Positions 45,263 through 58,808 of a stretch of DNA of 64,000 nt are shown here, piece after piece. The notes under the pieces were generated by a model. It was not told where the DNA came from. It was given only the letters and a program-made list of their open reading frames with translations, and ran no database searches. The stretch's first letter is position 1. Every line of letters begins with the position of its first letter. The position numbers were made by a program, and so were the translations under genes. Source of the DNA: a virus; IMG/VR virus record IMGVR_UViG_3300045988_080466; one strand, given 5' to 3'.

Positions 45263-45268
45263 ATAATC

Positions 45269-46271: not shown

Positions 46272-46297
46272 CTTGATGTAAATTTAAGTTTTACAAG

Positions 46298-46382: not shown

Positions 46383-46388
46383 TTACCA

Positions 46389-46628: not shown

Positions 46629-46661
46629 AATCTTTATAAATTTAATTGTTAATATTAAGCG

Positions 46662-46743
46662 TATCCGAGGTCAGATTCGAACTGACACGAGCTTTGCTCA
46701 TTGGTTCCTAAGACCAACGCGGCTACCATTTCGCCACTCGGAC
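46662..46743 (-). tRNA. tRNA-Leu (UAG), class II
   Basis: Loop CTTAGGA; variable arm GAGC-AAA-GCTC. Confidence 0.85.
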
Positions 46744-46748
46744 AAGTA

Positions 46749-46828
46749 GCAAGGAGTCTATAGTGGGCTGCAGGACGTCTAAATCCACAGCGAACTAAAA
46801 CAATGGAAGATTTCGGGAGACTCCTTGC
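46749..46828 (-). ncRNA. tRNA-Leu 5' leader hairpin (11-bp closing stem; lacks the ACAGCAA motif)
   Basis: GCAAGGAGTCT (46749-59) pairs with AGACTCCTTGC (46818-28); 5 nt from the tRNA 5' end. Confidence 0.5.
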
Positions 46829-46835
46829 GAATATT

Positions 46836-47105
46836 TTAGTTGTGGGCTCTTAATAGCTCCCCATATTTGTAGTGATTACAATACCTATGTAAGTAGGCAA
46901 TGTAGACGTACTTATCCTTTATTAAGTCATAGTGCTTTTGTTGAAAGCGAAGAACAGAATCTCTGTCTCCATTTAAAAATTCAACATGATACTCTGCAAC
47001 TGAAGGATGCACAAAGATACTACTTTTAGTCGATTGTGCAAAGACAATCGCTATAAAAAATGTTAAAATTAAAACCAGTATTCTATTAGACTTTATAATG
47101 GTCAT
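46836..47105 (-). CDS. secreted or membrane-anchored small protein
   Basis: N-terminal ILVLILTFFIAIVFAQS signal-like segment. Confidence 0.5.
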   Translation of the reverse strand: MTIIKSNRILVLILTFFIAIVFAQSTKSSIFVHPSVAEYHVEFLNGDRDSVLRFQQKHYDLIKDKYVYIAYLHRYCNHYKYGELLRAHN

Positions 47106-47382
47106 ACAGCAATGAAATTAAATTTGGATTAATCCATTTCTGTGTGTCTATTGTTCTAAACAGATGCAGGAAATCACTCGCTACACGTTCATTGTCAAGA
47201 TACCAGTCAATTTTACTTATCTCAATTTCAAGGTCTTTAATAGACCTCTCATCGGGAAGAGACTCACAAATTTCATCAATTCTGTTATTAAGTCTCTTGG
47301 AACACATCACCAAACAGATTAATACTGTTACTGCTCTTACAAAGTAAATTGCAAGAAATAAACATATAAAAAGGTTCATCAT
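47086..47382 (-). CDS. membrane-anchored protein (98 aa)
   Basis: N-terminal TM MMNLFICLFLAIYFVRAVTVLICLV. Confidence 0.5.
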   Translation of the reverse strand: MMNLFICLFLAIYFVRAVTVLICLVMCSKRLNNRIDEICESLPDERSIKDLEIEISKIDWYLDNERVASDFLHLFRTIDTQKWINPNLISLLYDHYKV

Positions 47383-48335
47383 AAGCTCATTAGTTTTTCG
47401 TAAGCTGCTGTTAGTTCCTTAAATTTCTCTTCACTGCCACCTCTATCAGGGTGATAAACAAGAACCAATTTCCTATAAGCTGCTTTAATTATTTTCTTAT
47501 CAGTTGTTGGAGAGATTTGCAACATTGTGTAAAGAGAAGCGTAAGGATTAACTGTCTCTTGTTGGCGTTTAGCTTGTTCTCTTGAGAAATTATCCCACCA
47601 ACTCTGGTATTGGTGATTAAACCCTGCAAAATCATCATTAAACTCAAATCCTTGATTACCATAGAATCTAGCTCTCTGATATGCATTTTCTTGTTTAACC
47701 CTTTCTCTTTCTCTTCTTTCACGCTCTATCCTTTCTTCCCACTCTCTTTGTGCTCTTCTTGCTGCTTCTTGTGCCTTTCTTATGTTTTCCTCTACTTTAG
47801 CGGGAATCTCATAAAATATGTGGTCGAGAGTTTTATCAGCAATAGTCCACAAGATACTAATATGGATGGGCTTACTAATAGCATACTTCATTCCAGCATC
47901 CCAGAGATTTCCTTTCACATTAGCGTATATGGAAATATTTTGCCGATTTTCTTTCAAACCTTTCTCTATAGCTTCTATAACAGCATAGAAATAAGGCTCT
48001 TTCTTCCCTTCAAGAAGTTTCAGTATAGCTCTGAATTGAGGAATCCTTTCCCTATCAAGTTGGCTACTTAACAAATAAGCAAACCACTTAAAGTGATTGT
48101 ACTTTTTCAATTCCGAGAAATTACACTTTATAAGGGAATGTTCAGGCTCAAAGTCAGATTCCTCAACGAAATGTGCTCCGCTAAAGAAATTATAGTATTC
48201 AAACTCAAGATTGTACTTCCTACAAGCATATATAAACGCTTTATCTCTACTTGTAATAATGTCTCTTTCCTCTCCCTCATTTAGATTAGAAGAGCCATTA
48301 AAGTATTTTAAAGAAATCTTTTTAAAAACATTCAT
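47379..48335 (-). CDS. J-domain (DnaJ-like co-chaperone) protein
   Basis: C-terminal YTMLQISPTTDKKIIKAAYRKLVLVYHPDRGGSEEKFKELTAAYEKL with HPD tripeptide. Confidence 0.75.
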   Translation of the reverse strand: MNVFKKISLKYFNGSSNLNEGEERDIITSRDKAFIYACRKYNLEFEYYNFFSGAHFVEESDFEPEHSLIKCNFSELKKYNHFKWFAYLLSSQLDRERIPQFRAILKLLEGKKEPYFYAVIEAIEKGLKENRQNISIYANVKGNLWDAGMKYAISKPIHISILWTIADKTLDHIFYEIPAKVEENIRKAQEAARRAQREWEERIERERRERERVKQENAYQRARFYGNQGFEFNDDFAGFNHQYQSWWDNFSREQAKRQQETVNPYASLYTMLQISPTTDKKIIKAAYRKLVLVYHPDRGGSEEKFKELTAAYEKLMSL

Positions 48336-48361
48336 TGTCTCATCTATTTAGTTGTTAAACG

Positions 48362-48435
48362 TGGGCCTGACCGGACTTGAACCGATAACCTCAACATTAT
48401 GAGTGTTTTGCTCTGACCGATTGAGCTACAGGCCC
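48362..48435 (-). tRNA. tRNA-Met type (CAU; could be elongator Met or lysidine-Ile2)
   Basis: GGGCCTG acceptor, loop CTCATAA, T-loop TTCAAGT. Confidence 0.8.
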
Positions 48436-48438
48436 AAT

Positions 48439-48465
48439 AAAAAAGGACAGCTGTTAACTGTCCTT
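48439..48465 (-). terminator. rho-independent terminator (minus strand), 3 nt upstream of the tRNA 5' end
   Basis: AAGGACAG/CTGTCCTT 8-bp stem followed in minus sense by TTTTTTATT. Confidence 0.8.
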
Positions 48466-48470
48466 AGTTT

Positions 48471-48881
48471 TTACTCTTCAATTTCTTTATCATCGGATTC
48501 TTCATCCATAAGAATGATTCCTAAACCGACAACGTTGCCAAGTTCTTTTGGCAATGTGACTGCATCTTCTGGAAACCATTCGTTGTAAGTTTCAACAGCA
48601 ATTTTCCAATCAACGAGAACATCACGAAGTCCGCTTTTCTTAGTATGGATAGTTTCAACAAACTGTTTCGGATTGAAGTCTTTATCTACCGGAGATAAAG
48701 ATGTTGTGTTGTTGATTGATAAATCCATGAGGTTCGTTAACTCATTGATGAGTCTTTGAGCTTCTCTTTTGTAGGTGGCAATTACTTGTTCTTGTTCTGC
48801 CTTTACAATGTTAGCAATGTTAGTTGCGCGAGCGTTCAGCAATCCTTGTCCGCTGCGAGATAAGATACTTTTAAATTTCAT
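48471..48881 (-). CDS. hypothetical protein (136 aa)
   Basis: ORF. Confidence 0.55.
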   Translation of the reverse strand: MKFKSILSRSGQGLLNARATNIANIVKAEQEQVIATYKREAQRLINELTNLMDLSINNTTSLSPVDKDFNPKQFVETIHTKKSGLRDVLVDWKIAVETYNEWFPEDAVTLPKELGNVVGLGIILMDEESDDKEIEE

Positions 48882-48911
48882 TTCCTTACGTAATTTTTAT
48901 TAAGATATTTT

Positions 48912-49487
48912 TTAATCAATCAAAAGCCAGCGATAATCAACTTTATCTGCATAGATAGCGTCAAATACCAGTTGTCCAAACTGCTTACATACATATAAAG
49001 CCGTTTCTTCATCCTTACAGGATAAAATCCCTACATAGGAGCCGGAAGCGCTGACCCCAGCATAAGAATAGAAGCAACCAGGGCCAGCATCACTACTGCT
49101 ATCAGGAGCGTTGCTGCTAAGCAGATAATATGTTTCTCCTTCGCAGATGAACTTTCCGATAATATTCTTCTTTTCACTGTTGGGCAACTTACTTTCCAGA
49201 TAGAAACGAACCCAGGGATACCATATTCTTCCTTCTGTTAAGCTGAAATCATGACCCTGATTCAAAGCACGAAGCACAGTCTGTAGTTCATACATTTTAC
49301 GAATGGAACAAGGAGCGGATTCCAACCAAGAAGGATACTTCTCTCCTAACGCTTCAAAAGCATCAGCCACACTCTTTACCCTTGATTTGATGTCTTCATC
49401 AATAAAGCTAATTGTGCGAGTGCTTTTATCATATACAGGAATCTTACCTTCTGGAGCCTGTACTTCAATTACATGTTTCTTACTCAT
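48912..49487 (-). CDS. hypothetical protein (191 aa)
   Basis: Track ORF 48912..49601 trimmed to ATG 49487 (MSKKHVIEV) because its N-terminal extension overlaps a tRNA. Confidence 0.55.
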   Translation of the reverse strand: MSKKHVIEVQAPEGKIPVYDKSTRTISFIDEDIKSRVKSVADAFEALGEKYPSWLESAPCSIRKMYELQTVLRALNQGHDFSLTEGRIWYPWVRFYLESKLPNSEKKNIIGKFICEGETYYLLSSNAPDSSSDAGPGCFYSYAGVSASGSYVGILSCKDEETALYVCKQFGQLVFDAIYADKVDYRWLLID

Positions 49488-49516
49488 ACTAAAATATTTA
49501 ATAAAGTTTTTAATTG

Positions 49517-49599
49517 AGCCCTCTGTCCGATTCGAACGGACGTGTCCTTGCGGAACATCATTACAAGTGACGTGCAATCGACCACTATGCGAAGAGGGC
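49517..49599 (-). tRNA. tRNA with UGU (Thr) anticodon and a class II-type long variable arm
   Basis: GCCCTCT/AGAGGGC acceptor, 3-bp D stem, loop CTTGTAA, variable TTCC-GCAA-GGACAC (GNRA-capped), discriminator U. Confidence 0.7.
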
Positions 49600-49605
49600 A
49601 AATAC

Positions 49606-49727
49606 AGATGTGAGTTTTTAAGACGGACTCGAACCGAAATCTCCTAGCAAGCTAGGCGTAATAACCATTATACTATACTTCCTTGTTGGTGGGAGTTAAT
49701 TATTAACTTGCTGTTACACATCTTTAG
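49606..49727 (-). ncRNA. tRNA-leader hairpin family, copy 2 (loop carries tRNA-like arms)
   Basis: Stem AGATGTG/CACATCT, TAACAGCAAG motif; loop contains a D-arm-like GTATAATGGTTATTAC, CCTAG-CTTG-CTAGG hairpin and CGG-TTCGAGT-CCG. Confidence 0.55.
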
Positions 49728-49751
49728 ATATAACCTTGCCAGGTTAGGTTG

Positions 49752-49823
49752 TCGAGAGCGGGGGATTCGAACCCCAACTACCACAGTGACAGTGTGGCGT
49801 GCAGCCATTACACTACGCCCTCG
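49752..49823 (-). tRNA. tRNA-Asp (GUC)
   Basis: Loop CTGTCAC, T-arm GGGG-TTCGAAT-CCCC; acceptor/D junction slightly irregular, ends +/- 3 nt. Confidence 0.75.
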
Positions 49824-49960
49824 AAGGAGTGGATGTCAGCCGTTTCTATTCCACCATTGCGTACTACGCTGCTGACTAGCGTCTAAGACTTCTTTTCCTC
49901 ACGTCGTCTTAGAATGTACTTGATTATTATTGCCAGTTAAGGGAGGATTAAGTACAAGAG

Positions 49961-50035
49961 CACCGCCCACGGGATTCGAACCCGTATTAGCATCATCGAA
50001 AGTGATGTGTCCTAGTCCAATTAGACGAGAGCGGC
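49961..50035 (-). tRNA. tRNA-Glu (UUC)
   Basis: GCCGCTC acceptor, loop CTTTCGA, T-arm ACGGG-TTCGAAT-CCCGT. Confidence 0.85.
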
Positions 50036-50042
50036 AGAAAGC

Positions 50043-50165
50043 GGAAGACCTTTTATTACGTTGCTCTACCTGACTGAGCTAAATGAAGCAAGCTTCACTA
50101 TGAGATTTGAACTCATGACCGACGGCTTACAAGGCTGAATAGTTATTGCTGCAAGTCTTCCTTAT
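50043..50165 (-). ncRNA. tRNA-leader hairpin family, copy 3: encloses a circularly permuted tRNA-like domain (YrlA / Y-RNA-like architecture)
   Basis: Basal stem GGAAGAC/GTCTTCC, TTGCAGCAAT motif. Then, 5' to 3': T-arm ATGAG-TTCAAAT-CTCAT, acceptor-like 7-bp stem AGTGAAG-CTTG-CTTCATT closed by a tetraloop, U8-A9, canonical D-arm GCTC-AGTCAGGTA-GAGC. Confidence 0.6.
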
Positions 50166-50178
50166 TTATTAACTTAAC

Positions 50179-50493
50179 CTATTTTTCTTTTGGCTTAAAA
50201 ATGAATCTGGCAGGATAGATTTCACCAAGACCTGGCTTGTCATATTCAACTTCCCAACCATTTTTACGGTATTCATCTTCTACATTTAACCATCTGTTTT
50301 CCCAAATAGTTTGAACAGTTATGTCGTCAAGGGGGCAAAGACGAATAATTTCAGTAATAACTTCATCTTGCAATATTACAGTGCTATAAGCATCATAATT
50401 CTTTACAAGAAGATTGTTAAACGCCCCATACACAAAATCAGGAATGGATGCAAGTTTATGTTCCTTAGCATCTTTTGGTGTAAATACTTTCAT
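50179..50493 (-). CDS. hypothetical protein (104 aa)
   Basis: Track ORF trimmed from GTG 50544 to ATG 50493 (MKVFTPKD). Confidence 0.5.
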   Translation of the reverse strand: MKVFTPKDAKEHKLASIPDFVYGAFNNLLVKNYDAYSTVILQDEVITEIIRLCPLDDITVQTIWENRWLNVEDEYRKNGWEVEYDKPGLGEIYPARFIFKPKEK

Positions 50494-50521
50494 ATTATTT
50501 ATTTTTAAGTAGTAATCTCTA

Positions 50522-50725
50522 TTAATCCCAAAACCAAATTTCACGAGCCATAGCTCGTCTCATCGATATTTTACCATCAAGAATTTTAAACCATTTTTGG
50601 TGTCTGAAATGTTGAAATCTACATTTTCCTTTCTTTCCACCTAATACGTGATAAATCCACCGTCTTCCATGAGAGCGTTTACCAATGTATTTACTAGCAG
50701 TTTTCCATTTCTTTCCGTTGCTCAT
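50522..50725 (-). CDS. small highly basic protein (67 aa)
   Basis: Lys/Arg/Trp-rich ORF. Confidence 0.4.
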   Translation of the reverse strand: MSNGKKWKTASKYIGKRSHGRRWIYHVLGGKKGKCRFQHFRHQKWFKILDGKISMRRAMAREIWFWD

Positions 50726-50743
50726 ATTATTAATAAAGGTTAG

Positions 50744-50831
50744 AGGAGGCTGTAGGAGTCGAACCTACTCAACGAATGGGTACGTTACATCGGATTTCAA
50801 GTCCGTTCCATTACCGTTCTGGCAAACCTCC
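50744..50831 (-). tRNA. tRNA-Ser (UGA), class II
   Basis: Loop CTTGAAA, long variable arm with AACG/CGTT stem. Confidence 0.8.
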
Positions 50832-50860
50832 ATTTTATTCATAAAATAACATTATTTACG

Positions 50861-50944
50861 GGTGTAGTATGGGATTCGAACCCATGCGTTTCTTATGTAC
50901 CAGAACCACAATCTGGCGGCATCAACCACTAGCCGAACTACACC
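50861..50944 (-). tRNA. tRNA-His (GUG) with encoded G-1 and an unusually long (about 14 nt) variable region
   Basis: G-1:C73, stem CCAGA/TCTGG, loop TTGTGGT; variable TACATAAGAAACGC. Confidence 0.75.
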
Positions 50945-50952
50945 ATGTTTAT

Positions 50953-51303
50953 TTATCGGTAAACGAAGAAATATCTTGGAAACTCTCCTCCAAATAGAGT
51001 AAGGGCTACATTACATAACCAAATGCTTGGAACAGGGACATCAGAACAAGAAATCCATTCATAAGTTGCTCCAAATTCATCTTGTTGTGGAGTGATATGA
51101 AAATAAAGGTCGTTTCTTCCTACCTCAATTTCTGTATCAACTTTCAATGTAACAACTTCTTTATTGTCAGGATATTCGGTAACATACCATTCTAAGAAAT
51201 CATCAGCACCGTTTACCATTTGTAAATCATCAATGCTTCCAGCCCAAGGAATATCAACAAACCATCGTTGAGCTAATTTTTTAAATGTTAGTTCAAGTTT
51301 CAT
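50953..51303 (-). CDS. hypothetical protein (116 aa)
   Basis: ORF. Confidence 0.5.
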   Translation of the reverse strand: MKLELTFKKLAQRWFVDIPWAGSIDDLQMVNGADDFLEWYVTEYPDNKEVVTLKVDTEIEVGRNDLYFHITPQQDEFGATYEWISCSDVPVPSIWLCNVALTLFGGEFPRYFFVYR

Positions 51304-51320
51304 ATTATTTCTTTATTAAG

Positions 51321-51394
51321 TGGAGCCAGTGGGACTCGAACCCACGACTTTCTGCGTGCAAGGCAGACGTTCTAGCCATCTGAACTATGACCCC
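51321..51394 (-). tRNA. tRNA-Ala (UGC)
   Basis: G3:U70 pair present, loop CTTGCAC. Confidence 0.85.
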
Positions 51395-51411
51395 AAGTTA
51401 TAGTTGAGGGG

Positions 51412-51485
51412 AGGGGAGTGTCGGGTTCGAACCGACAACCTATGGGTTAACAGCCCATTGCTCTGCCAATTATAGCTAACTCCCC
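51412..51485 (-). tRNA. tRNA-Asn (GUU)
   Basis: GGGGAGT acceptor, loop CTGTTAA. Confidence 0.85.
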
Positions 51486-51491
51486 GAATAC

Positions 51492-51562
51492 GGATTACTA
51501 TTTAAATGTGTCGCTATTTTCTGGTGCAATAATTTAAGGTAATTGCTGTAAGTAATCCTTGT
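51492..51562 (-). ncRNA. tRNA-leader hairpin family, copy 4
   Basis: ACAAGGATTACT-TACAGCAATTA...AGTAATCC, 6 nt before tRNA-Asn. Confidence 0.6.
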
Positions 51563-51901
51563 AATATATTTTAATATGTAAAAACAGTAGTCATTTATAA
51601 TCCCTATGTGTAGGAACTTACTCCCCCATTGGAAGTGTTCCCGTTGGTAACCAAGTATAGCTGTGTGAAGCTTGCTCGAAATACCATACAAAAGCTCTTT
51701 TTAATAATTTCATAACTTTCATACTTTTAAGGGTTAAATGAATAAATAAATAATCTAAAAACTCTGGTCAACCACACGCATCCCACCAGTTTGTACTTCC
51801 CGCTCCTCTTAGTACAAGTGACTCTGTTGTTCCTACAGATTATCTCCTAAGTATCCAAGCGAGTTATCACCTGCCAAAGCCTTGTCCGTTGTGAGTTTTT
51901 G

Positions 51902-51975
51902 TGCGCCCGTTGTGATTCGAACACAAGACCCACGGATTAAAAATCCGTTGCTCTAACCAACTGAGCTACGAGCGC
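51902..51975 (-). tRNA. tRNA-Lys (UUU)
   Basis: GCGCTCG acceptor, loop TTTTTAA. Confidence 0.85.
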
Positions 51976-51997
51976 AATCCTAAATTGCCTTTCGGGC

Positions 51998-52067
51998 AGA
52001 ACACTATAATAAGCTGTGTCAAATTAAAAGTTTGATGCTGAATATAATTGCTGTAAGTGTTCTTTAT
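51998..52067 (-). ncRNA. tRNA-leader hairpin family, copy 5
   Basis: ATAAAGAACACT-TACAGCAATTA...AGTGTTCT; 22 nt (with a GCC/GGC mini-hairpin) before tRNA-Lys. Confidence 0.6.
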
Positions 52068-52085
52068 TATTAACTAAAATGGAAG

Positions 52086-52167
52086 AGCCCAGAGTCGGAT
52101 TCAAACCGACGACAGATTTCTCAAACGGTTTTGCAGACCGCCCCCTTAATCACTCGGGCATCTGGGC
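52086..52167 (-). tRNA. tRNA with GCA (Cys) anticodon, U73, and a long variable region
   Basis: GCCCAGA/TCTGGGC acceptor, 3-bp D stem CCC/GGG, loop CTGCAAA, variable TTGA-GAAA-TCTGTC. Confidence 0.7.
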
Positions 52168-52173
52168 ATAAAC

Positions 52174-52236
52174 AGAAGTCTTTTTGTTGACAATATAACC
52201 AATTGTTGTATTAAATTTGCTGTGAGACTTCTTTGT
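52174..52236 (-). ncRNA. tRNA-leader hairpin family, copy 6
   Basis: ACAAAGAAGTCT-CACAGCAAAT...AGACTTCT, 6 nt before tRNA-Cys. Confidence 0.6.
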
Positions 52237-52430
52237 ATTTTTGGTATTCTGAAATATTCTACTAAAGAGAACCACTTTCGATAGTCTTCTCACGTACCAA
52301 TCGAGTTAATTCCCTGTCACACTTACGTGCCTTGTGCAGTTTTTTACCTGCTGCCCAGTACACTTATTTCTTGTTGAATAAGTATGAAAAAGTCACCCGA
52401 ATTTATCGTCACATTCGGTAAACGGTGAGG

Positions 52431-52504
52431 TCGGACGGGTAGGACTTGAACCTACGACCCTTACCTTATCAGAGTAATGCTCTAACCAACTGAGCTACCG
52501 TCCG
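52431..52504 (-). tRNA. tRNA-Ile (GAU)
   Basis: Loop CTGATAA, canonical D and T arms; C1:G72. Confidence 0.8.
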
Positions 52505-52719
52505 GATTACGAGACTTGCCTATATGCGTCCATATAAGTAGTATCTCAACCTATCTTCTACTTCGGTCGTTGATAGGACTGATTTCCTCCCACCTTTGCG
52601 CATCCATATCCGAATTTGGAGAGGCGTAGGAAGGATATTTGGTATTCCACGATAAGAGGTCGTTACTCTCTCACCACCGCTTGTTTAAGGCGGCTATGCA
52701 ACTCTACACTATATCGTCT

Positions 52720-53103
52720 TTATAATTTATAAATTAAAGTTTTATATTTGTCTTTCATTATTTTGAATCCCAATGGAAGTAAAGCATATTCATATACCTT
52801 TCTTCTCCTCTCATCGTCAGGATAAACCTCAATAGAGTCTCCTGGGAATTTCCATTTAGCATAATCAATAAAGTCAAGTAAACATTTTTTAGCCCACAAT
52901 AAAGACTTTATTCCGTCTTTACCAGTTGTTTTACCTTCTTGATAACCATGCTTCCTTTTAGTGGTTACATAAAAGGCAAAGTTTAAGGTCTCATTGTAAG
53001 TTCTATATACTTCACAGACAATTATTTGATTACACTCATTACGCGATTTATAAATGTAATGGTCAAGGTATTCTTTACCTGATTCTCTTTGTACATCATA
53101 CAT
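52720..53103 (-). CDS. hypothetical protein (127 aa)
   Basis: Trimmed to ATG 53103. Confidence 0.5.
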   Translation of the reverse strand: MYDVQRESGKEYLDHYIYKSRNECNQIIVCEVYRTYNETLNFAFYVTTKRKHGYQEGKTTGKDGIKSLLWAKKCLLDFIDYAKWKFPGDSIEVYPDDERRRKVYEYALLPLGFKIMKDKYKTLIYKL

Positions 53104-53410
53104 AATCCTCACATTCTTCTCTAATTAACTTTTTAGCTTCATATCGTTTTTTACGATTTTCTTTCTTTACGTCATACTGATGCATTTTACTTCTGCCGAC
53201 AACTGTACTATGTTTAAGTTTCTTAGCAAACTTGGAATCATTAAGAAAATCTGTAATAGATTCACAATTTCTATAAGTTGCTATTGTGTTTGGATAACTA
53301 TGTTTAATTCCTCTTATCGGGACATCAAAAGTTCCCCATGAATTGTAAATCTTTCTTGCTCTCGAAATCCATTTATTTCTTGTGCGTTCACGTCTAAGTT
53401 CTCTATTCAC
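53096..53410 (-). CDS. hypothetical basic protein (104 aa), GTG start
   Basis: ORF; Arg/Lys-rich. Confidence 0.45.
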   Translation of the reverse strand: MNRELRRERTRNKWISRARKIYNSWGTFDVPIRGIKHSYPNTIATYRNCESITDFLNDSKFAKKLKHSTVVGRSKMHQYDVKKENRKKRYEAKKLIREECEDYV

Positions 53411-53514
53411 AACTATCTTTTATTAATGATGTTACTTATATCCATTCATTTGTTATTTTTAGTAGAATTGGTTGGTTATCCAGTCACACCACGTGGAGGT
53501 TTCTACTATGTGAC

Positions 53515-53587
53515 CTGCGGAGCTGGGAATCGAACCCAGAACCCGAGGATATGAGCCTCGTGAGATACCATTTCTACGCACTCCGCA
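53515..53587 (-). tRNA. tRNA-Met type (CAU), second copy (initiator/elongator/Ile2 unresolved)
   Basis: Stem CGAGG/CCTCG, loop CTCATAT, T-arm CTGGG-TTCGATT-CCCAG; D arm irregular. Confidence 0.7.
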
Positions 53588-53590
53588 ATA

Positions 53591-53761
53591 TCATTTGTTT
53601 ATTCCTTGCATTAATATATCTCCAGTAATATCACCTGCTACATTTAGAAGATACTCTGCAAAATTATTTTCAGCTGATGGTTGGGTATTTTTATCTATCC
53701 TTTTTGCTATTTTAAGCAATTCATCTAACTTTTTAATAATTAAATCGAGTTTGTCTTCCAT
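53591..53761 (-). CDS. small hypothetical protein (56 aa)
   Basis: Below cutoff; MEDKLDLIIKKLDELLKIAKRIDKNTQPSAENNFAEYLLNVAGDITGDILMQGINK; the plus-strand track ORF here is its antisense. Confidence 0.4.
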   Translation of the reverse strand: MEDKLDLIIKKLDELLKIAKRIDKNTQPSAENNFAEYLLNVAGDITGDILMQGINK

Positions 53762-53776
53762 AGTAGTAATTATATG

Positions 53777-53852
53777 TGCGGATAGAGAGACTCGAACTCT
53801 CCCCTTCTGATTGGAAGTCAGACATGCTCAAAACCATTGACACCACACCCGC
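53777..53852 (-). tRNA. tRNA-Gly (UCC)
   Basis: Loop CTTCCAA, T-arm GAGAG-TTCGAGT-CTCTC; long D loop. Confidence 0.8.
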
Positions 53853-53857
53853 AGATT

Positions 53858-53879
53858 AAAAAGGCTTAATTAGCCTTTT
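53858..53879 (-). terminator. A/U-flanked hairpin, probable terminator (overlaps the MazG-like stop)
   Basis: AAAAGGCT-TAATT-AGCCTTTT. Confidence 0.45.
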
Positions 53880-54180
53880 GTTTGTTATATTTTTCAATCC
53901 ATTTGTCACACTTTACTTTGAGTCTTTCTTCAAAGAGTTTTTGGAAATCATCTCCGTAAACACTTACTCCCAAGTCTACTACATTAATAAATGTATCGAC
54001 CAATTCATCACAAAGATTGAGAGCTTCTGTTTTCTTATAATCAGAAAGGCCAGTAATAATACTGATTTCTCCCATTACCTCACCACTCTCTTCTGCCAAC
54101 TTAATGGCAATGTCCTGAGTTGTTCGCCCGTTCTTAATAGACTTTCCAACTTCAACAACGTGTTCAATCACATCAATCAT
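53866..54180 (-). CDS. MazG-like nucleoside triphosphate pyrophosphohydrolase
   Basis: 104 aa all-helical; LAEESGEVMGE (EExxE) and CDELVD motifs. Confidence 0.6.
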   Translation of the reverse strand: MIDVIEHVVEVGKSIKNGRTTQDIAIKLAEESGEVMGEISIITGLSDYKKTEALNLCDELVDTFINVVDLGVSVYGDDFQKLFEERLKVKCDKWIEKYNKQKAN

Positions 54181-54203
54181 AATTTATTTCCTTAATTGTG
54201 AGT

Positions 54204-54235
54204 ACAAAGATACTACATATTTTTAATGTTACAAA
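54204..54235 (-). promoter_or_regulatory. Bacteroidota-type promoter
   Basis: Minus-sense TTTG (54232-35), N20, TATCTTTG (54204-11). Confidence 0.75.
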
Positions 54236-54340
54236 ATAGTAACTGTTAATTTCTGTTAAAGAATGGACTACTTTCCCAAGCAATCCATTTATGTGTCTAA
54301 TTTAAAAAATAAAATTATAGAAACTATGAGAACTTTTTTG

Positions 54341-54423
54341 CTGAACGGTCAGGATTCGAACCTGAGTGAGCTTTCGCTGATGGTTTTGGAGACCATTCTC
54401 GTCGACCACTTGAGTACCGCCCA
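54341..54423 (-). tRNA. tRNA with CCA (Trp) anticodon, G73, and a class II-type long variable arm
   Basis: 3-bp D stem CTC/GAG, stem ATGGT/ACCAT, loop CTCCAAA, variable CAGC-GAAA-GCTCAC (GNRA-capped). Confidence 0.7.
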
Positions 54424-54429
54424 GTGTAC

Positions 54430-54488
54430 AGATGTCCTTTTTGTATATTCAGTAAATAATATTAAATATTGCTGCAAGACATCTTTAA
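54430..54488 (-). ncRNA. tRNA-leader hairpin family, copy 7
   Basis: TTAAAGATGTC-TTGCAGCAATA...GACATCT, 6 nt before tRNA-Trp. Confidence 0.6.
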
Positions 54489-54510
54489 AAATAATAAAAA
54501 TGAACAAATG

Positions 54511-54594
54511 TGGGCCCGGCAGGACTCGAACCTGCAGTCCAATTAAGGAGGGGATTTACAGTCCCCGCGGCTACCAATTACCGGTTACGTGCCC
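54511..54594 (-). tRNA. tRNA-Tyr (GUA), class II
   Basis: Stem GGGGA/TCCCC, loop CTGTAAA, variable arm TCC-TTAATT-GGA. Confidence 0.8.
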
Positions 54595-54601
54595 GAAAAA
54601 C

Positions 54602-54664
54602 AGATGTGCATTTACGATGTTAATATTTGGTAAACATTATAAGTTTGCTGTTGCACATCTTTGT
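54602..54664 (-). ncRNA. tRNA-leader hairpin family, copy 8
   Basis: ACAAAGATGTGCA-ACAGCAAAC...TGCACATCT, 7 nt before tRNA-Tyr. Confidence 0.6.
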
Positions 54665-54696
54665 AATCAATTAACAACTAAAAATCAACACAAAAG

Positions 54697-54769
54697 TCTG
54701 GGTAGCAGGATTCGAACCTGCGGTCTCTACATCCCAAATGTAGCGTGTTGCCAACTCCACCATACCCAG
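54697..54769 (-). tRNA. tRNA-Pro (UGG)
   Basis: C1:G72, loop TTTGGGA. Confidence 0.85.
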
Positions 54770-54773
54770 AAAT

Positions 54774-54791
54774 GGAGACTATTTTGTCTCC
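54774..54791 (-). terminator. hairpin at gene end / tRNA-Pro leader (weak terminator)
   Basis: GGAGAC-TATTTT-GTCTCC; weak U tract. Confidence 0.35.
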
Positions 54792-55408
54792 AAATATTTC
54801 ATTAAATCAAGAGATGAACTTCCTGCATACAATGCTCCAGCATTAATTGCATCTTTCAACTTCTCAATTACTACATCCACTGTTTGTCCTTTACAAGCCT
54901 TATAAATCACTGTCCTCTTCTTGGAAGTCATGAACTTCTTATAATTTGGAAACGTACTATTTACAACAGCCCAGAAACTTACCCATTCTGCTTCGTTTGT
55001 ATAATTGCAGGTAAGACCCGATTCCGCTTTAGAAATCTTCCTAGAACATTTAACAGCATTTTGCGCCTTCACTACCTTGTTTGCCTTTGCAACATTAGAT
55101 ATTATTTCCTTTTTCAATTCCTTTATTTCTCTTATATATAAATAGTTAGAGATAAAGGTCTTAAGTCCAGCTAAGTTAAATGTCAATATCTGTGGTCCTT
55201 CTTTCACTTGAACCAAATATACTGTCTTAGCATTTAAAGGATTTACTATTCTAATATCACAAGTGATTTTAGCTGCTTCTGGAAAATGGTCACTTATTCC
55301 TATTTTAAGCTTTCCAATGTTATAATAAACACTGTTAGTTGTTTTGGAATTTGTGACTTTATCCTTCTTGGTCATTAAAGACTCAAGATACTTACTTATA
55401 TACGACAT
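54779..55408 (-). CDS. hypothetical protein (209 aa)
   Basis: ORF. Confidence 0.55.
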   Translation of the reverse strand: MSYISKYLESLMTKKDKVTNSKTTNSVYYNIGKLKIGISDHFPEAAKITCDIRIVNPLNAKTVYLVQVKEGPQILTFNLAGLKTFISNYLYIREIKELKKEIISNVAKANKVVKAQNAVKCSRKISKAESGLTCNYTNEAEWVSFWAVVNSTFPNYKKFMTSKKRTVIYKACKGQTVDVVIEKLKDAINAGALYAGSSSLDLMKYLETK

Positions 55409-55635
55409 TAGTGTTGATATTTACGGATTCTACACTTGCAATCAGGGTCATGAACTACTCCCATAGTTCTTGTCTTAGCACTACCTGTGGTAAATGAAAT
55501 ATACGTATGACCACTGTATTCAAATTTCTCGACTCTTGTTGAATATGCCTGAACTTTAATGACAGAGTATCGTGGCTCAACTCTAGTACATCCAACTAAG
55601 GATATAATAACTAATAAGTAAATTACCTTTCTCAT
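55408..55635 (-). CDS. small lipoprotein
   Basis: Trimmed to ATG 55635: MRKVIYLLVIISLVGCTRV (lipobox). Confidence 0.6.
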   Translation of the reverse strand: MRKVIYLLVIISLVGCTRVEPRYSVIKVQAYSTRVEKFEYSGHTYISFTTGSAKTRTMGVVHDPDCKCRIRKYQH

Positions 55636-55636
55636 A

Positions 55637-55780
55637 CTAGGCCTTTTTTGGATAAAAAGATGCAACTATTGAGGATAAGAAAAGCCCTCCTGCCATACCA
55701 CAAAGGTAAGCACTAGGTTCCTTAAATAGGATTGAAGCCACAAGCATAATAAATCCCAACACTATTAATAATCCATTCAT
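55637..55780 (-). CDS. small membrane protein (47 aa)
   Basis: Below cutoff; MNGLLIVLGFIMLVASILFKEPSAYLCGMAGGLFLSSIVASFYPKKA. Confidence 0.4.
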   Translation of the reverse strand: MNGLLIVLGFIMLVASILFKEPSAYLCGMAGGLFLSSIVASFYPKKA

Positions 55781-55814
55781 AATATTAATCTTTAATTAAT
55801 AACTCATTTAATTG

Positions 55815-55891
55815 TGGGGAATGGCAGAATCGAACTGCCGCTATCGTCCTGGATTTTCAGTCCAGCGCTCTACCAACTGAGCTAATTCCCC
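55815..55891 (-). tRNA. tRNA-Phe (GAA) with 9-nt variable region
   Basis: Loop CTGAAAA; variable GACGATAGC instead of the usual 5 nt. Confidence 0.8.
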
Positions 55892-55978
55892 GTTTGCCTG
55901 CGAACCTCACAGTCTCTTTTTTAGTTCACAGGCTACTCTCTATCCTCCCGTATTCTGGGATTTGACACTATTGATTAC

Positions 55979-56077
55979 GGATTAGGTTCGTGCCTCTTCT
56001 TACCTTCCGGTACCTTCGAGAGCTTTCGTCCTTATTTATATAGTATAAGTTGTGTACTTGCTGTACCTAATCCTTGT
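55979..56077 (-). ncRNA. tRNA-leader hairpin family, copy 9
   Basis: ACAAGGATTAGGT-ACAGCAAGT...ACCTAATCC; 87 nt (with an extra 10-bp hairpin) upstream of tRNA-Phe, directly downstream of the TROVE/vWA gene. Confidence 0.55.
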
Positions 56078-56116
56078 TAGACATTACCTATCTACTTAAT
56101 CTTTACCTAACCGCTG

Positions 56117-57838
56117 TTAGAGAGTAAGCATATTCAGTAATTCTTGATTCATTGCTGCTTGGAACAATTCCAGAGCATTTTTCGGAATACTTTCAACAGG
56201 TGTTTTACCAGTAAGGAAGGCAATTCCAGCTGGGTCAAGACCACTCATATAGAAAGTATATGCGTCGTCACAGAGTGATTCAAACTTCGGACGAGGACTT
56301 GAGGAATAATATCCGTTAGGAATATCCCATAGAACCATAACGAAGTTATCAACGAACTCTTTAGAGAATCTCGTTCTCAATAGTTGACGGAACGCAGTAA
56401 ATACTGACTGATTACGTCCAACAGAGTTGAACTCACCATCAGAAATACAGATGATACCACTTGGGAAATCTTCTTCTGCATATCCCTTATCTCTAAGAGA
56501 TACAAGAAGTTGTGCAACTGACATTAAATTGGTTCCACAATAACCGCCACCATGAAACTTAGTGAATTTTTCATAAGGAGTATCTCCCCTCCACTCTTTC
56601 ATTAGGCATGTATTTGAGAACTCAAGTACAGTATTTGCAAATTTCCCTTCCAGTAAGTATGACAGATACAGAGCAATGGATTTTGCTACATGATATGCAC
56701 TTACTTCAAGTCCGGCAGCCTTGGAAGTCATAGAACCAGATGTGTCAAGAACAGCGATAAGATTAGTCTTGCGATTCATATCTTGTTTAGCTGTTTCGAT
56801 AAGAGACATAAACTGCTTATTAACAGTGTCTATCTGGTAAGGTTTCAGAGCTGTTTTTCTTCCATTATAACAATCGTTATCAGGGAACAGTTCATACACA
56901 AATCCAGTGAACTTAGCCACTGGTTTCGCTGTAAGCCATTCCTCATAAGCCTGTGTCAAGTTGTGGTTTTCTAAGAACTTACCTTTAGCAAGTAATGCAA
57001 GTGCTCTACCAGCAATCGAATCGAAATCAAGATTTTTGTAGTCTTGACGGCTAATTGCCTGCTGCCATTTGTGGGCATTGCCTGATGCTTTAATTTCACG
57101 ATACATTTTATATGCACGCCACTTACCTCCTTCACCTTCTCCCAAGTCGAATATTTCTTTAACGATTTTCTTTGCAATAAAGTTATTGCATTGAGAACGC
57201 AAAGAAGTACACTTCTTGCTTGGCTTTATCTGTGGAAGATACTTTCTCACCAAGTTAGTTTGGCTATCATCAGCCAATCCACCGACAATAAACCTGATGA
57301 TGTATTTCCAATCAAGAACTTTATTGACTGCACCATGATATTCAAGGTCAAGCCTTAGAATTTCAAAGACATCATCCCACGAACCTGCTGTAACAAACAC
57401 AGGTAAGTTCTTTTTGAAGATTTTTGGGTGATTGATGGCAAGCCAAATCATTCTCATGAAGAACTCGGATTTAAGTCCTTGTCCTCTTTGAACACCCAAT
57501 TTCTTGCCAGTAAACAGTTTCGGATTACGAGTAATCAAACGAATGTACACTGCTTCTTTAATAGCTGTCAATGGGTCTACTGCCCAAAGCCTTTCCATAG
57601 TCTGGGAAACCTCAGCAAACTCTCTGGGTTTTCTGTAATTACCAATGGCTGCGAAGTCATCGATAAATACATTACCTGACGTATCATACTTCAAACTTCC
57701 GTTACCGGATAAAGTTTGATGTTCCATCTTATATGCTTCTCTCTGGAAGATATTTTCAAACTTGGGAGCTTGTACTCCCGAACCTTTAGTAACTTTAGGA
57801 GTTACTTCATAAAGCGATGTTCTTTTTCTGTCAAACAT
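56117..57838 (-). CDS. Ro60-like TROVE + von Willebrand A domain protein (DUF2828-type)
   Basis: N-terminal TLSGNGSLKYDTSGNVFIDDFAAIGNYR then helical repeats; C-terminal vWA with MIDAS VLDTSGSMTS and ICISDGEFN; same order as Ro60/Rsr. Confidence 0.6.
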   Translation of the reverse strand: MFDRKRTSLYEVTPKVTKGSGVQAPKFENIFQREAYKMEHQTLSGNGSLKYDTSGNVFIDDFAAIGNYRKPREFAEVSQTMERLWAVDPLTAIKEAVYIRLITRNPKLFTGKKLGVQRGQGLKSEFFMRMIWLAINHPKIFKKNLPVFVTAGSWDDVFEILRLDLEYHGAVNKVLDWKYIIRFIVGGLADDSQTNLVRKYLPQIKPSKKCTSLRSQCNNFIAKKIVKEIFDLGEGEGGKWRAYKMYREIKASGNAHKWQQAISRQDYKNLDFDSIAGRALALLAKGKFLENHNLTQAYEEWLTAKPVAKFTGFVYELFPDNDCYNGRKTALKPYQIDTVNKQFMSLIETAKQDMNRKTNLIAVLDTSGSMTSKAAGLEVSAYHVAKSIALYLSYLLEGKFANTVLEFSNTCLMKEWRGDTPYEKFTKFHGGGYCGTNLMSVAQLLVSLRDKGYAEEDFPSGIICISDGEFNSVGRNQSVFTAFRQLLRTRFSKEFVDNFVMVLWDIPNGYYSSSPRPKFESLCDDAYTFYMSGLDPAGIAFLTGKTPVESIPKNALELFQAAMNQELLNMLTL

Positions 57839-57866
57839 ATTCAGGTTATTAATTCGTTATTACTTG

Positions 57867-57952
57867 TAGCTCCAGTGAGACTCGAACTCACACGTCCATT
57901 TCTGGACATCAGGGCTTAAACCTGACGCGTCTACCAATTCCGCCATAGAGCC
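57867..57952 (-). tRNA. tRNA-Leu (UAA), class II
   Basis: Loop TTTAAGC, variable arm GTCCA-GAAA-TGGAC. Confidence 0.85.
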
Positions 57953-57963
57953 ATCCTTGTTAT

Positions 57964-58095
57964 TTAGAAGCCATCTTCATCAATATCGTCGTTGTAAATG
58001 TAGTCAATCATTGCACCAGCAAGAATAAACATTCCGAATAAAACGAATAAGAATAAAATGAAGATTATGATTACTCCCAGTATAAATTCTATCAT
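57964..58095 (-). CDS. small membrane protein (43 aa)
   Basis: Below cutoff; MIEFILGVIIIFILFLFVLFGMFILAGAMIDYIYNDDIDEDGF; consensus promoter upstream. Confidence 0.45.
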   Translation of the reverse strand: MIEFILGVIIIFILFLFVLFGMFILAGAMIDYIYNDDIDEDGF

Positions 58096-58120
58096 ACTTT
58101 TCCTTTTTGATTAAGTGATG

Positions 58121-58151
58121 CAAAGATACTACAAAAAATTGAGCTTACAAA
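58121..58151 (-). promoter_or_regulatory. Bacteroidota-type promoter
   Basis: Minus-sense TTTG (58148-51), N19, TATCTTTG (58121-28). Confidence 0.75.
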
Positions 58152-58439
58152 CCTTTATTAGTTAAAATTTGTAAATTCAATCTTTAAATATCTTGGTTGA
58201 TAGCCAACATATAAAAGTAAATCCAGCAGCAATGGCTGCCATACACAAAGTTCCCTGAAGAAGGTAAATTATGAAATCCATACTAAACTCCTTTCTTCCA
58301 TTTAACATACAAGATAGCCAATCCATATATAATTGGAAAGGCTATCATACCATAAAGAAATTCCATTAATTCGGTGTACTAAAGATGAAACACAGAATCA
58401 ATACCACGCATAATGCTATTAATACACCATTCATAATAA

Positions 58440-58790
58440 TTACATTTGGGCGATTTGAGATTTCATGCAGATGTTCGGAGTGCTGAAAACTGCATATGCC
58501 TGCACATCGCCAATTCCTACCATTTTGACCTTTACGTGGCCGGAATCAACAACAATAGGTGTAACATCGTCACCATATTGGTCAGTGTCAAGTACTACAG
58601 CGACAACCCCAAGTTCAGAAGAGATGTGGCTACAAATATCAGAAAGAACTTCCGGGAACTCATTGTTCACCAGAATACACTCAAGCATTTCGTTGTGTGA
58701 TATAACAGCCACTACTGGAGAATCGTTGTTCATTTCAATTGCCAGTTTATTTTCACCTTCTTGTACTTTTGCAAATTCTAATTTCTTCAT
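58440..58790 (-). CDS. hypothetical protein (116 aa)
   Basis: ORF. Confidence 0.5.
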   Translation of the reverse strand: MKKLEFAKVQEGENKLAIEMNNDSPVVAVISHNEMLECILVNNEFPEVLSDICSHISSELGVVAVVLDTDQYGDDVTPIVVDSGHVKVKMVGIGDVQAYAVFSTPNICMKSQIAQM

Positions 58791-58808
58791 CTTTATATGA
58801 TTTTATGA

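Follow-up and report, generated by a model that had tools for sequence, protein, structure and literature searches.

The viral record IMGVR_UViG_3300045988_080466 of IMG/VR, from a gut phage, was analysed over a stretch of 64,000 nucleotides (nt), referred to here as the window, which carries an array of transfer RNA (tRNA) genes in which five genes with class I anticodons, those for Thr, His, Cys, Trp and Phe, have an enlarged variable region. ARAGORN detects 22 tRNA genes between approximately 43.5 and 61.8 kb, all on the minus strand, including the five genes with long variable regions, which measure 78-84 nt, at positions 49516-49599 (Thr-UGU), 50860-50943 (His-GUG), 52085-52167 (Cys-GCA), 54340-54423 (Trp-CCA) and 55814-55891 (Phe-GAA). 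The Rfam covariance model for tRNA recovers the same five places with 46.6-69.8 bits (Thr 49.0, His 51.1, Cys 53.9, Trp 46.6, Phe 69.8; gathering score 29), and in the printed Rfam alignments the surplus bases of Phe and Cys appear as an insertion in the variable region. By our own segmentation, the variable regions read UUCCGCAAGGACAC (Thr), UACAUAAGAAACGC (His), UUGAGAAAUCUGUC (Cys), CAGCGAAAGCUCAC (Trp) and GACGAUAGC (Phe), identical to the strings given in an earlier reading of this DNA, hereafter the original prediction. Both programs thus concur with that prediction on the 14-nt variable regions of Thr, His, Cys and Trp and the 9-nt region of Phe, and they assign the same anticodons; the genes are not misread Leu, Ser or Tyr genes.

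Canonical class II tRNAs of bacteria (Leu, Ser, Tyr and Sec) have a variable stem-loop longer than 10 nt; their D stem is 3 bp long, their D loop is enlarged, and 13:22 is not a Watson-Crick pair. The long-arm tRNAs described here share these features. One unpaired base on the 5' side and three on the 3' side of the variable stem, as in the tRNA-Tyr of these phages and of Bacteroides, complete the likeness. A variable stem-loop of at least 10 nt is present in Thr (49542-49555, U[UCC GCAA GGA]CAC, a 3-bp stem with a GCAA loop) and in Trp (54366-54379, C[AGC GAAA GCU]CAC, a 3-bp stem with a GAAA loop). Cys is marginal, its variable region (52111-52124, UU[GA GAAA UC]UGUC) forming a weak stem of two Watson-Crick pairs plus U.U and U.G around GAAA, and the regions of His (50886-50899, 14 nt) and Phe (55840-55848, 9 nt) are stem-less. 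The 3-bp D stems claimed for Thr, Cys and Trp are found in all three, with U.U, G.A and A.C at 13:22, respectively; the D arm of Thr reads U8 C9 GCAUAGUGGUCGAUUGC A26, and Phe has a 4-bp D stem. The extra mini-helix of the original prediction therefore stands for Thr and Trp, is weak in Cys, and falls away for His and Phe, whose expansions lack any helix. The Leu, Ser and Tyr copies, described there as normal, indeed look canonical in the window (Table 1).

Table 1. Positions of the long-variable-region tRNA genes, of the array that contains them and of further features of the window.
Feature	Position	Strand	Remarks
tRNA-Thr(UGU)	49517..49599	-	83 nt up to discriminator; G1-C72, C2-G71, U73; CCA not encoded
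tRNA-His(GUG)	50861..50944	-	encoded G-1 (50944) faces C73
tRNA-Cys(GCA)	52086..52167	-	U73; D stem 3 bp + G13.A22
tRNA-Trp(CCA)	54341..54423	-	G73; D stem 3 bp + A13.C22
tRNA-Phe(GAA)	55815..55891	-	A73; ordinary class I 4-bp D arm
tRNA array	43529..61839	-	23 tRNA genes (22 by ARAGORN, Gly-UCC by Rfam only) and a transfer-messenger RNA (tmRNA), with small open reading frames between
tRNA-Ser(GCU)	46297-46382	-	canonical class II, normal-looking
tRNA-Leu(UAG)	46661-46743	-	canonical class II, normal-looking
tRNA-Ser(UGA)	50743-50831	-	canonical class II, normal-looking
tRNA-Lys(UUU)	51901..51975	-	ordinary allele, variable region of 5 nt
tRNA-Gly(UCC)	53777-53852	-	Rfam 49.8 bits; missed by ARAGORN
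tRNA-Tyr	54510-54594	-	canonical class II, normal-looking
tRNA-Leu(UAA)	57866-57952	-	canonical class II, normal-looking
tmRNA	60751-61328	-	Rfam 81.2 bits; 578 nt, phage-encoded; not called by ARAGORN
Pnkp (polynucleotide kinase-phosphatase, T4-type)	2878..3792	-	Pfam HAD_PNKP 5.7e-25 and AAA_33
putative RNA ligase	4768..6141	-	phrog_968 'RNA ligase' 4.1e-37, full length; family label only

The long-arm tRNAs of the window are genuine and far beyond chance, because two finders concur, the genes are kept in 12 related contigs, and the variable stem of Thr covaries. The related IMG/VR contigs (62-188 kb, with the same tRNA array) were retrieved via the array protein encoded at 56117-57838, and they extend the original prediction from one phage to its relatives. 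Thr has a variable region of 14 nt (V=14) in every related contig whose fetched stretch includes that gene, Trp in all those that have a Trp gene, and Cys in all except the most distant, L011, where V=6 and the acceptor and anticodon stems are those of the window. Nine relatives carry His with the same 14-nt sequence; in L011 and L003, the His gene measures 73 nt and V is 4. The stem-less His of the window is confined to its own clade, and a hairpin-bearing long-arm His, U[AGC GAAA GCU]CAC, occurs in L032 and L406. In the tRNA-Lys(UUU) slot, 10 relatives have an 86-nt Lys with the arm A[GGAA GUAA UUCC]ACG. The Phe slot is likewise allelic: seven relatives have V=5, and V=9 is found in the window and in L001, L004, L006 and L012. 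The Asn of L011 has a long arm (V=16), its His and Cys being short, and a more distant relative in GenBank, MT835492.1, has the long-arm Asn C[CC GAAA GG]UUC. Long and short alleles of Lys, Phe, His, Cys and Asn thus alternate among close relatives, and in several of them the long-arm gene is the sole phage copy of its isoacceptor within the fetched part of the array.

Two further observations concern these arrays. In L003, an extra block at ~16900-21350 with approximately 13 tRNAs of ordinary length (V=4-5; Trp, Cys, His, Phe, Lys and others) is inserted in the array, so that this contig holds long-arm and ordinary Trp, Cys and Lys together. In L007 (14512-14586) and L009 (14724-14798), a tRNA-like gene is called with an anticodon of four bases (GCGU), of a kind that could read a quadruplet or shift the frame.

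Structural selection on the arm is evident within and between phage clades. Two alleles of the Thr arm in one clade, U[UCC GCAA GGA]CAC and U[AGA GAAA UCU]CAC, differ at all three stem pairs, yet both pair and both have a GNRA loop, and the Trp arm of L325, C[UGC GAAA GCA]CAC, shows a compensatory change relative to the window. A stem of at least 3 bp is formed in 60 of the 73 distinct long-arm Thr arms, compared with a mean of 26 and a maximum of 36 in shuffles. In a gap-free alignment of 46 diverse phage Thr sequences with V=14, the variable stem is paired in 98.6% of cases, with changes on both sides at each of its three pairs (in 26, 26 and 14 sequences), and the hairpin is therefore under selection. 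The whole cloverleaf of the alignment is 98.5% paired, versus 65% when shuffled and 30-40% when partners are slid; the 7-bp acceptor stem reaches 99.7% and the 5-bp T stem 99.6%, the Levitt pair of G15 and the last variable base, C48, is invariant, and the T loops and G18 G19 are intact. An intron or excised insert was considered and set aside as unlikely, since the arm covaries as part of the cloverleaf and nothing speaks for excision. The tRNA introns known from bacteria are of group I and interrupt the anticodon loop.

These data also bear on the proposal that the long-arm tRNAs are not translational at all, serving as decoys or sponges for host nucleases or representing decaying class II pseudogenes. 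Over-expressed phage tRNA-Tyr partly shields the tRNA-Tyr of the host from Septu (PMC13096335), and the arms of His and Cys in the window look degenerate. The proposal nevertheless seems very improbable, given that every part of the cloverleaf is present and its four canonical stems covary (98.5% of cells paired), that the T loops, G18 G19 and the Levitt pair are preserved and the identity sets are cognate, and that in several relatives such a gene is the sole phage copy of its isoacceptor in the fetched part of the array.

The arm is coupled to the D arm. The phage long-arm Thr(UGU) family, as defined here, has U8, C or G at position 9, the D arm GCAUAGYGGUYGAYUGC, A26, G1-C72, C2-G71, either U73 or A73, and C48 as the last base of a variable arm of 11-18 nt, and the Thr gene of the window matches the D-arm pattern exactly and belongs to this family. 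When viral contigs were scanned with the Thr-type D arm and anticodon loop, leaving the variable region unconstrained, at least 116 loci were found, and all 67 distinct tRNAs among the matches listed have V=11-18, as do all 11 tRNAs called by ARAGORN at 12 matches in cellular genomes. In a pool of 1,924 distinct phage tRNAs, which also underlies the arm frequencies given below, the 13:22 pair forms in 27% of long-arm (V>=10) class I tRNAs and in 27% of Leu, Ser and Tyr tRNAs, compared with 81% of class I tRNAs with V<=5. The sequences thus indicate that the arm is a structurally selected, integral part of a co-adapted class II-type scaffold, and not an add-on. Through this coupling, conservation of the arm alone is no proof of an extra function.

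The loops of the arms bear on the suggestion that the GNRA cap is a deliberate special addition. A GNRA loop on a stem of at least 3 bp occurs in 22 of 73 Thr arms (shuffle mean 0.06), but the canonical Leu and Ser arms of these phages end in GNRA loops no less often (Leu-UAA 12/23, Ser-UGA 10/27), and the suggestion does not hold; the caps are a general means of stabilising a short stem and not a special mark. The loop sequences moreover vary widely (GAAA, GUAA, GCAA, UUCG, UUU and others), which speaks against reading them as a sequence-specific handle. A handle for a phage factor was among the speculative ideas of the original prediction. In its broader form, this idea holds that the arm recruits a phage modification, repair or delivery protein and marks phage tRNAs for preferential use. 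RNA-handling genes do surround the array (Pnkp, RNA ligase, a TROVE/Ro60-like protein and the tmRNA). However, de novo clustering of 4,744 open reading frames (ORFs) from 332 loci with long-arm tRNAs yielded only homing endonucleases and clade-specific unknowns, and no other recurrent partner. In addition, the loops vary, and the same tRNA family occurs in unrelated phages with differing gene contents. One candidate partner, a 190-amino-acid (aa) ORF without Pfam match, immediately follows the long-arm tRNA-Lys on its downstream side in seven relatives (at 17205-17777 in L001 and at the corresponding place in L002-L005, L009 and L010); it is absent from the window and was rejected as arm-specific, as it is missing in L006, L007 and L012, which retain that long-arm Lys. 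Taken together, recruitment by the arm is improbable. Within the array of the window, a TROVE/Ro60-like protein of 573 aa (56117-57838, minus strand) with DUF2828 and DUF7788 is labelled 'RNA-binding protein' in PHROG; near its gene, no Y-RNA family scored above the Rfam threshold.

The amino-acid identity of the long-arm tRNAs can be predicted from several positions, which are the relevant determinants under the established identity rules (reviewed in PMC9976931). In the window, the acceptor and discriminator sets fit the anticodons (Thr G1-C72/C2-G71/U73, Cys U73, Trp G73, His G-1:C73), and the class I identities claimed earlier agree with anticodon, discriminator and acceptor determinants alike. 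Across phages, G1C2...G71C72 is found in 69 of 73 distinct long-arm Thr tRNAs, with U73 in 56 and A73 in 13; the discriminator is G73 in 11/11 Asn, U73 in 7/7 Cys and C73 in 5/5 His, and, by inspection of the sequences, G73 in nearly all of the 64 distinct long-arm Trp tRNAs. The tRNA-Ser of the same phages starts with GGA and has one unpaired base 3' of the arm, and the long-arm class I species have three, like the tRNA-Tyr of these phages and of Bacteroides. The restriction of class II architecture to Leu, Ser, Tyr and Sec identities is therefore not observed here, the anticodons being UGU, GUG, GCA and CCA with matching acceptor sets. We infer from these elements that host synthetases charge the long-arm tRNAs with the amino acid of the anticodon.

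The alternative is mischarging or recoding, in which seryl-, leucyl- or tyrosyl-tRNA synthetase (SerRS, LeuRS or TyrRS) would charge these tRNAs, in the manner of nematode nev-tRNAs or allo-tRNAs, and Thr, Trp, Cys and His codons would be partly misread. Such charging would draw on the long arm as the main SerRS determinant and on the compatibility of U73 or G73 with Ser identity in allo-tRNAs (PMC5389517), as well as on the Tyr-like geometry of the arm, with a single base ahead of the stem and three behind it, and on G3.U70 in the tRNA-Trp of the window. Yet the acceptor sets are cognate (C2-G71 in Thr versus G2-C71 in the tRNA-Ser of the phage, G-1:C73 in His, U73 in Cys), the three unpaired 3' bases differ from the single one in the tRNA-Ser of the phages, and A73, which is needed for Leu and Tyr identity, is found in none of the four 14-nt species of the window. 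Since cognate acceptor and discriminator sets combined with three unpaired 3' bases argue against Ser, Leu or Tyr charging, mischarging is improbable. A separate observation concerns the acceptor stem of the tRNA-Trp in the window, which has U1-A72, G3.U70 and G4.U69, with G3.U70 also present in the related tRNA of L325. G3.U70 is the main determinant of the alanyl-tRNA synthetase (AlaRS), and dual charging of this tRNA with Trp and Ala is possible on these grounds.

Viral contigs were scanned for the anticodon loop of Thr-UGU in combination with a T loop placed far enough behind it to demand V>=10, with calls confirmed by ARAGORN, and scans of the same design were made for Trp, Cys and His, all counts referring to the matches listed. 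Long-arm Thr(UGU) was confirmed in 80 of 119 loci on contigs of 4-380 kb from many different samples, long-arm Trp in 78 of 117 loci (64 distinct) and long-arm Cys in 28 of 115 (24 distinct). For His, only 3 new true loci were found among 108, the rest being mostly chance matches, so that long-arm His is rare and the scan also shows the chance background of such patterns. At 33 loci of the Thr scan, two to five long-arm class I tRNAs lie within the fetched stretch of at most 15 kb, and the neighbouring genes of scan loci include long-arm Asn, Lys, Gln, Glu, Gly, Ile, Met and Val tRNAs. By isoacceptor, long arms are common in Thr-UGU and Trp, reach approximately 20% in Asn, Lys-UUU, Cys and His, and are at 0% in Asp, Arg-ACG and Thr-GGU. 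The trait is a minority one, clustered in particular phages.

Cultured phages are among its carriers. Pseudomonas phage HPP-Temi has a long-arm tRNA-Thr of 87 nt, and coliphage T5 encodes an 87-nt tRNA-Thr(UGU) with the arm A[GGA GUAA UCC]CGUU and a long-arm tRNA-Asn of 83 nt, both annotated as plain tRNAs (Rfam 60.3 and 59.0 bits). BLAST of the whole tRNA-Thr of the window against GenBank phages gave no match at E<=1e-3 and mostly ordinary 76-nt tRNA-Thr at E<=10; T5-like phages surfaced with a 38-nt query covering the D arm and anticodon. Instead of a peculiarity of one phage, as which the trait had been seen, the viral scans, T5 and HPP-Temi reveal a widespread phage tRNA architecture.

Some of the sequences also point to the origin of the scaffold. 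The D arm of one Trp subfamily, CG-CNACAGUUGGAGAGGUNG, is that of the tRNA-Tyr of the relative L001, and the variable arm of this subfamily is Tyr-like; in L079, a Gly-UCC that has a Gly acceptor (GCG...U73) bears the Thr-type D arm and a long arm, its variable region measuring 17 nt. Together, the two cases indicate that a class II-type body has been re-targeted to new amino acids. The commonest ORF families beside long-arm tRNAs are HNH and GIY-YIG/NUMOD3 homing endonucleases, a neighbourhood that fits the swapping of alleles among relatives, and the distribution of the sequences supports a scaffold that is widespread and mobile among phages. The reverse change is also seen. In the pool, the variable loop measures 5 nt in approximately 20-30% of the phage tRNA-Leu, whereas Ser and Tyr are essentially always long, and both tRNA-Leu of T5 (UAA and UAG; L595, T5_ev212, LR597659.1, 89-165 and 4258-4334) measure 77 nt with a 5-nt loop and thus place a class II identity on the body of a class I tRNA. 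The long arm is used by SerRS and by the TyrRS of bacteria. The loss of the arm in Leu, and not in Ser or Tyr, fits the report that LeuRS of E. coli does not need it (PMC9976931).

Such gains and losses are what neutral drift of the scaffold would produce, in which, under relaxed constraint, the arm is gained or lost wherever the synthetase is indifferent and serves only to keep the class II-type core folded. This main rival to a selected function is possible, though on balance unlikely. It accounts for the way in which the arm follows synthetase rules (Ser and Tyr ~100% long; 20-30% of Leu, including both T5 Leu, without the arm that LeuRS does not need; PMC9976931), for the strict coupling of D arm and variable arm, for the interchange of long and short alleles between close relatives, and for stem-less intermediate lengths (Phe V=9, Asp V=7-8, His). 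It accounts less well for the strong bias among isoacceptors (Thr-UGU and Trp common; ~20% of Asn, Lys-UUU, Cys and His; 0% of Asp, Arg-ACG and Thr-GGU), for the D arm of one Thr family being nearly unchanged across phages of many metagenome samples and a Pseudomonas isolate, and for the near absence of the long-arm Thr family from cellular genomes.

In cellular genomes, the Thr-type D-arm pattern gave 12 matches in one genome each of 185,579 species, approximately half of which lie in phage-like tRNA arrays on contigs of metagenome-assembled genomes (MAGs). Five of the 12 belong to Cytophagales (including Spirosomataceae, Fibrella and Hymenobacter), each with one lone long-arm tRNA-Thr(UGU) of V=14-15 (L137 4796-4880 and L147 6268-6351 in MAGs; also L140, L144 and L145). 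In the two Cytophagales genomes checked, on contigs of 4.3 Mb and 344 kb, this gene lies beside those of a DUF349 protein and a pyridoxamine-phosphate oxidase (PdxH). The long-arm tRNA-Thr of some Cytophagales is a chromosomal gene in conserved synteny, and the scaffold apparently is native there.

The window itself is compatible with a Bacteroidota host, because its genes lack Shine-Dalgarno motifs (8/54) and its GC content is 35.8%. Via EF-Tu, one form of which carries the name Bacteroides eggerthii, contigs of Bacteroides and of further gut Bacteroidales were reached. Their loci, when segmented, show the usual Thr-UGU/Tyr/Thr-GGU-tuf-Trp cluster with a 75-nt Thr-UGU and a 74-nt Trp-CCA, both with V=5, and a tRNA-Tyr with V=14, U[GGC UUAC GCC]UUC. 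As the comparison with Bacteroidota tRNAs proposed in the original prediction thus reveals, the chromosomal Thr-UGU and Trp-CCA have no arm in Bacteroides and other Bacteroidales, and the Thr and Trp of the phage differ from those of this presumed host group in both the D arm and the variable arm.

From the sequences as a whole, the long-arm genes probably encode working elongator tRNAs, cognately charged, on an alternative class II-type scaffold that moves between phages. In this scaffold, a D stem of 3 bp carries an enlarged D loop, and the variable hairpin consists of a 3-5 bp stem closed by a tetraloop, with one unpaired base ahead of it and three behind. The scaffold would be tolerated because the threonyl-, tryptophanyl-, cysteinyl- and histidyl-tRNA synthetases (ThrRS, TrpRS, CysRS and HisRS) read the anticodon and acceptor or discriminator elements, all of which are intact, and the asparaginyl- and lysyl-tRNA synthetases (AsnRS and LysRS) would show the same tolerance in other phages. 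The scaffold is presumably old and in circulation among phages with many different hosts, in tRNA arrays where homing endonucleases abound and where it may be swapped as alleles between close relatives and re-targeted by changes of anticodon and acceptor. Its selective value would lie in providing isoacceptors unlike those of the host, which could survive host tRNA nucleases and still be charged by host synthetases.

Several known systems resemble this proposed scaffold. Relative to canonical class II tRNAs, the difference lies in the Thr, Trp, Cys and His (elsewhere Asn and Lys) anticodons and determinants. Long arms in bacteria are said to belong to tRNA-Leu, -Ser and -Tyr, and Sec (PMC7609411, PMC9976931). 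The nev-tRNAs of nematodes likewise join a class II body to the anticodon of a class I amino acid. These and other eukaryotic tRNAs with non-canonical variable arms were reportedly described by Hamashima and colleagues in 2012 and 2016 (cited in PMC5389517), and nev-tRNAs are said to retain Leu identity, to be charged with Leu and to mis-decode. In the phage tRNAs, the identity elements follow the anticodon instead, and the genes belong to phages and not to nematode nuclear genomes; the combination of a class II identity element (for example, A73 for Leu) with a foreign anticodon is not seen, the discriminators being U73, C73, U73 and G73. To our knowledge, no cellular rule gives a long arm to Thr, Trp, Cys, His, Asn or Lys.

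The allo-tRNAs, selC* tRNA-Cys and (8/4) tRNA-His/tRNA-Ser of bacteria and phages (Mukai et al., 2016; PMC5389517) are also irregular long-arm tRNAs with non-Ser anticodons, including Cys(GCA) with U73, and some of them are phage-borne or lie in tRNA clusters. They differ in having 8/4 or 9/3 acceptor/T-stem branches and D arms like that of tRNA-Sec, whereas all species described here are 7/5, the Rfam alignment and our own segmentation both giving 7 bp for the acceptor stem and 5 bp for the T stem. Long-arm class I tRNAs of phages, those of T5 included, are apparently undescribed so far; no description was found in full-text searches and dedicated reviews, with older subscription papers on T5 tRNAs outside the search, although the sequences are in GenBank under ordinary tRNA labels and T5 is a long-studied model phage.

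Phage tRNAs can escape the defence systems PARIS, Retron-Eco7 and Septu, and PrrC is also among the systems that they can defeat (PMC11464382, PMC11555353, PMC13096335). The published pairs are the tRNA-Lys of T5 with PARIS, the tRNA-Tyr of T5 and SP15 with Retron-Eco7, and the tRNA-Tyr of T6 with Septu (PMC11464382, PMC11555353, PMC13096335, PMC10264068). Like these immunity-escaping tRNAs of T5, SP15 and T6, the tRNAs described here are isoacceptors that differ from those of the host and lie in similar arrays, T5 itself has long-arm Thr and Asn, and the window also carries a Pnkp and putative RNA ligase repair pair. In the published cases, however, resistance is due to changes in the anticodon stem-loop, to the sequence of the already long arm of Tyr or to dosage, and no case is known of a class I tRNA gaining an arm.

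The repair pair is encoded by genes approximately 1 kb apart. Pnkp has full-length matches in the PDB to Pnkp1 (4xrp, 9e-24) and T4 Pnk (1ltq, 1e-14) and also matches phrog_505 (3.7e-59), and the putative RNA ligase at 4768-6141 has no Pfam or PDB sequence match. A second ligase (7351-8541) was considered as a tRNA-sealing enzyme and set aside as an ATP-dependent DNA ligase. Phage T4 mends tRNA-Lys cut by the anticodon nuclease PrrC with Pnkp and RNA ligase (PMC10264068), and the presence of both genes suggests that the lineage meets tRNA-cutting defences. Because the window encodes this pair, escape from such host defences by means of the long arm, one of the speculative ideas of the original prediction, is plausible; the lack of the arm in Thr and Trp of Bacteroides fits it as well. 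It is conceivable, but doubtful, that the class II-type scaffold is a general, shape-based counter-defence, in which Thr-UGU, Trp, Asn, Lys-UUU, Cys and His are re-housed and go unseen by host tRNA nucleases. As another option, to which we give equally little credence, the scaffold could hide phage tRNAs from an activity of the phage itself that depletes host tRNAs, host synthetases still charging them. With similar reserve, the tRNAs picked may be of the single-isoacceptor and AT-rich-codon kinds, with shape as a mark of self versus non-self.

A number of points weigh against a selected scaffold with such a protective value. Recognition and cleavage of tRNA-Tyr take place at its variable arm, and Retron-Eco7 and Septu act at the variable loop (PMC11464382, PMC11555353, PMC13096335); as both cut within this arm of tRNA-Tyr, having an arm can be a liability. 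Conservation of the hairpin may reflect only structural entrenchment with the 3-bp D stem, the loop sequences are unconserved and nothing in them indicates specific recognition, and in the window the expansions of His and Phe are stem-less and the stem of Cys is weak. Most phages lack the trait, with 3 of 113 class I tRNAs long-armed in chance-match loci, which approximate random viral DNA. Finally, the chromosomal long-arm Thr of Cytophagales means that the scaffold is not strictly a phage mark, and the host of this phage is one that we infer.

Probable as it is, the reading as cognately charged elongator tRNAs describes natural, structurally selected and widespread exceptions to the rule that restricts long arms to Leu, Ser and Tyr, with cognate identity elements and with T5 and some Cytophagales among the carriers. 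If they are charged correctly, six or more synthetases accept a large additional arm, its confinement to three families in cells would be a matter of discrimination or history and not of necessity, and ready-made, orthogonal-looking tRNA bodies would be at hand for engineering. If the arm protects against tRNA-cutting defences, it would constitute a new structural route of counter-defence beside anticodon-loop mutations, tRNA dosage and tRNA repair. For annotation, these genes call for caution, being silently labelled plain tRNA-Thr or tRNA-Asn and scoring lower on general tRNA models.

The remainder of the window is a replication and nucleotide-metabolism block, with NrdD, helicases, a primase, a DnaB-like protein, a DNA ligase and a dUTPase, together with an RNA-maintenance set of Pnkp, the putative RNA ligase, the TROVE/Ro60-like protein, the long tmRNA and an ADP-ribosylglycohydrolase. 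The tmRNA has an insertion of approximately 186 nt relative to the Rfam model, its tag region being longer. An ORF in the array at 54779-55408 was considered as a HEPN nuclease (Pfam E=0.0013, below the cut-off) and rejected, as it has no Rx4-6H motif and no PADLOC match. The ADP-ribosylglycohydrolase (21104-21910, minus strand; Pfam 8.8e-34) could undo ADP-ribosylation by host toxins.

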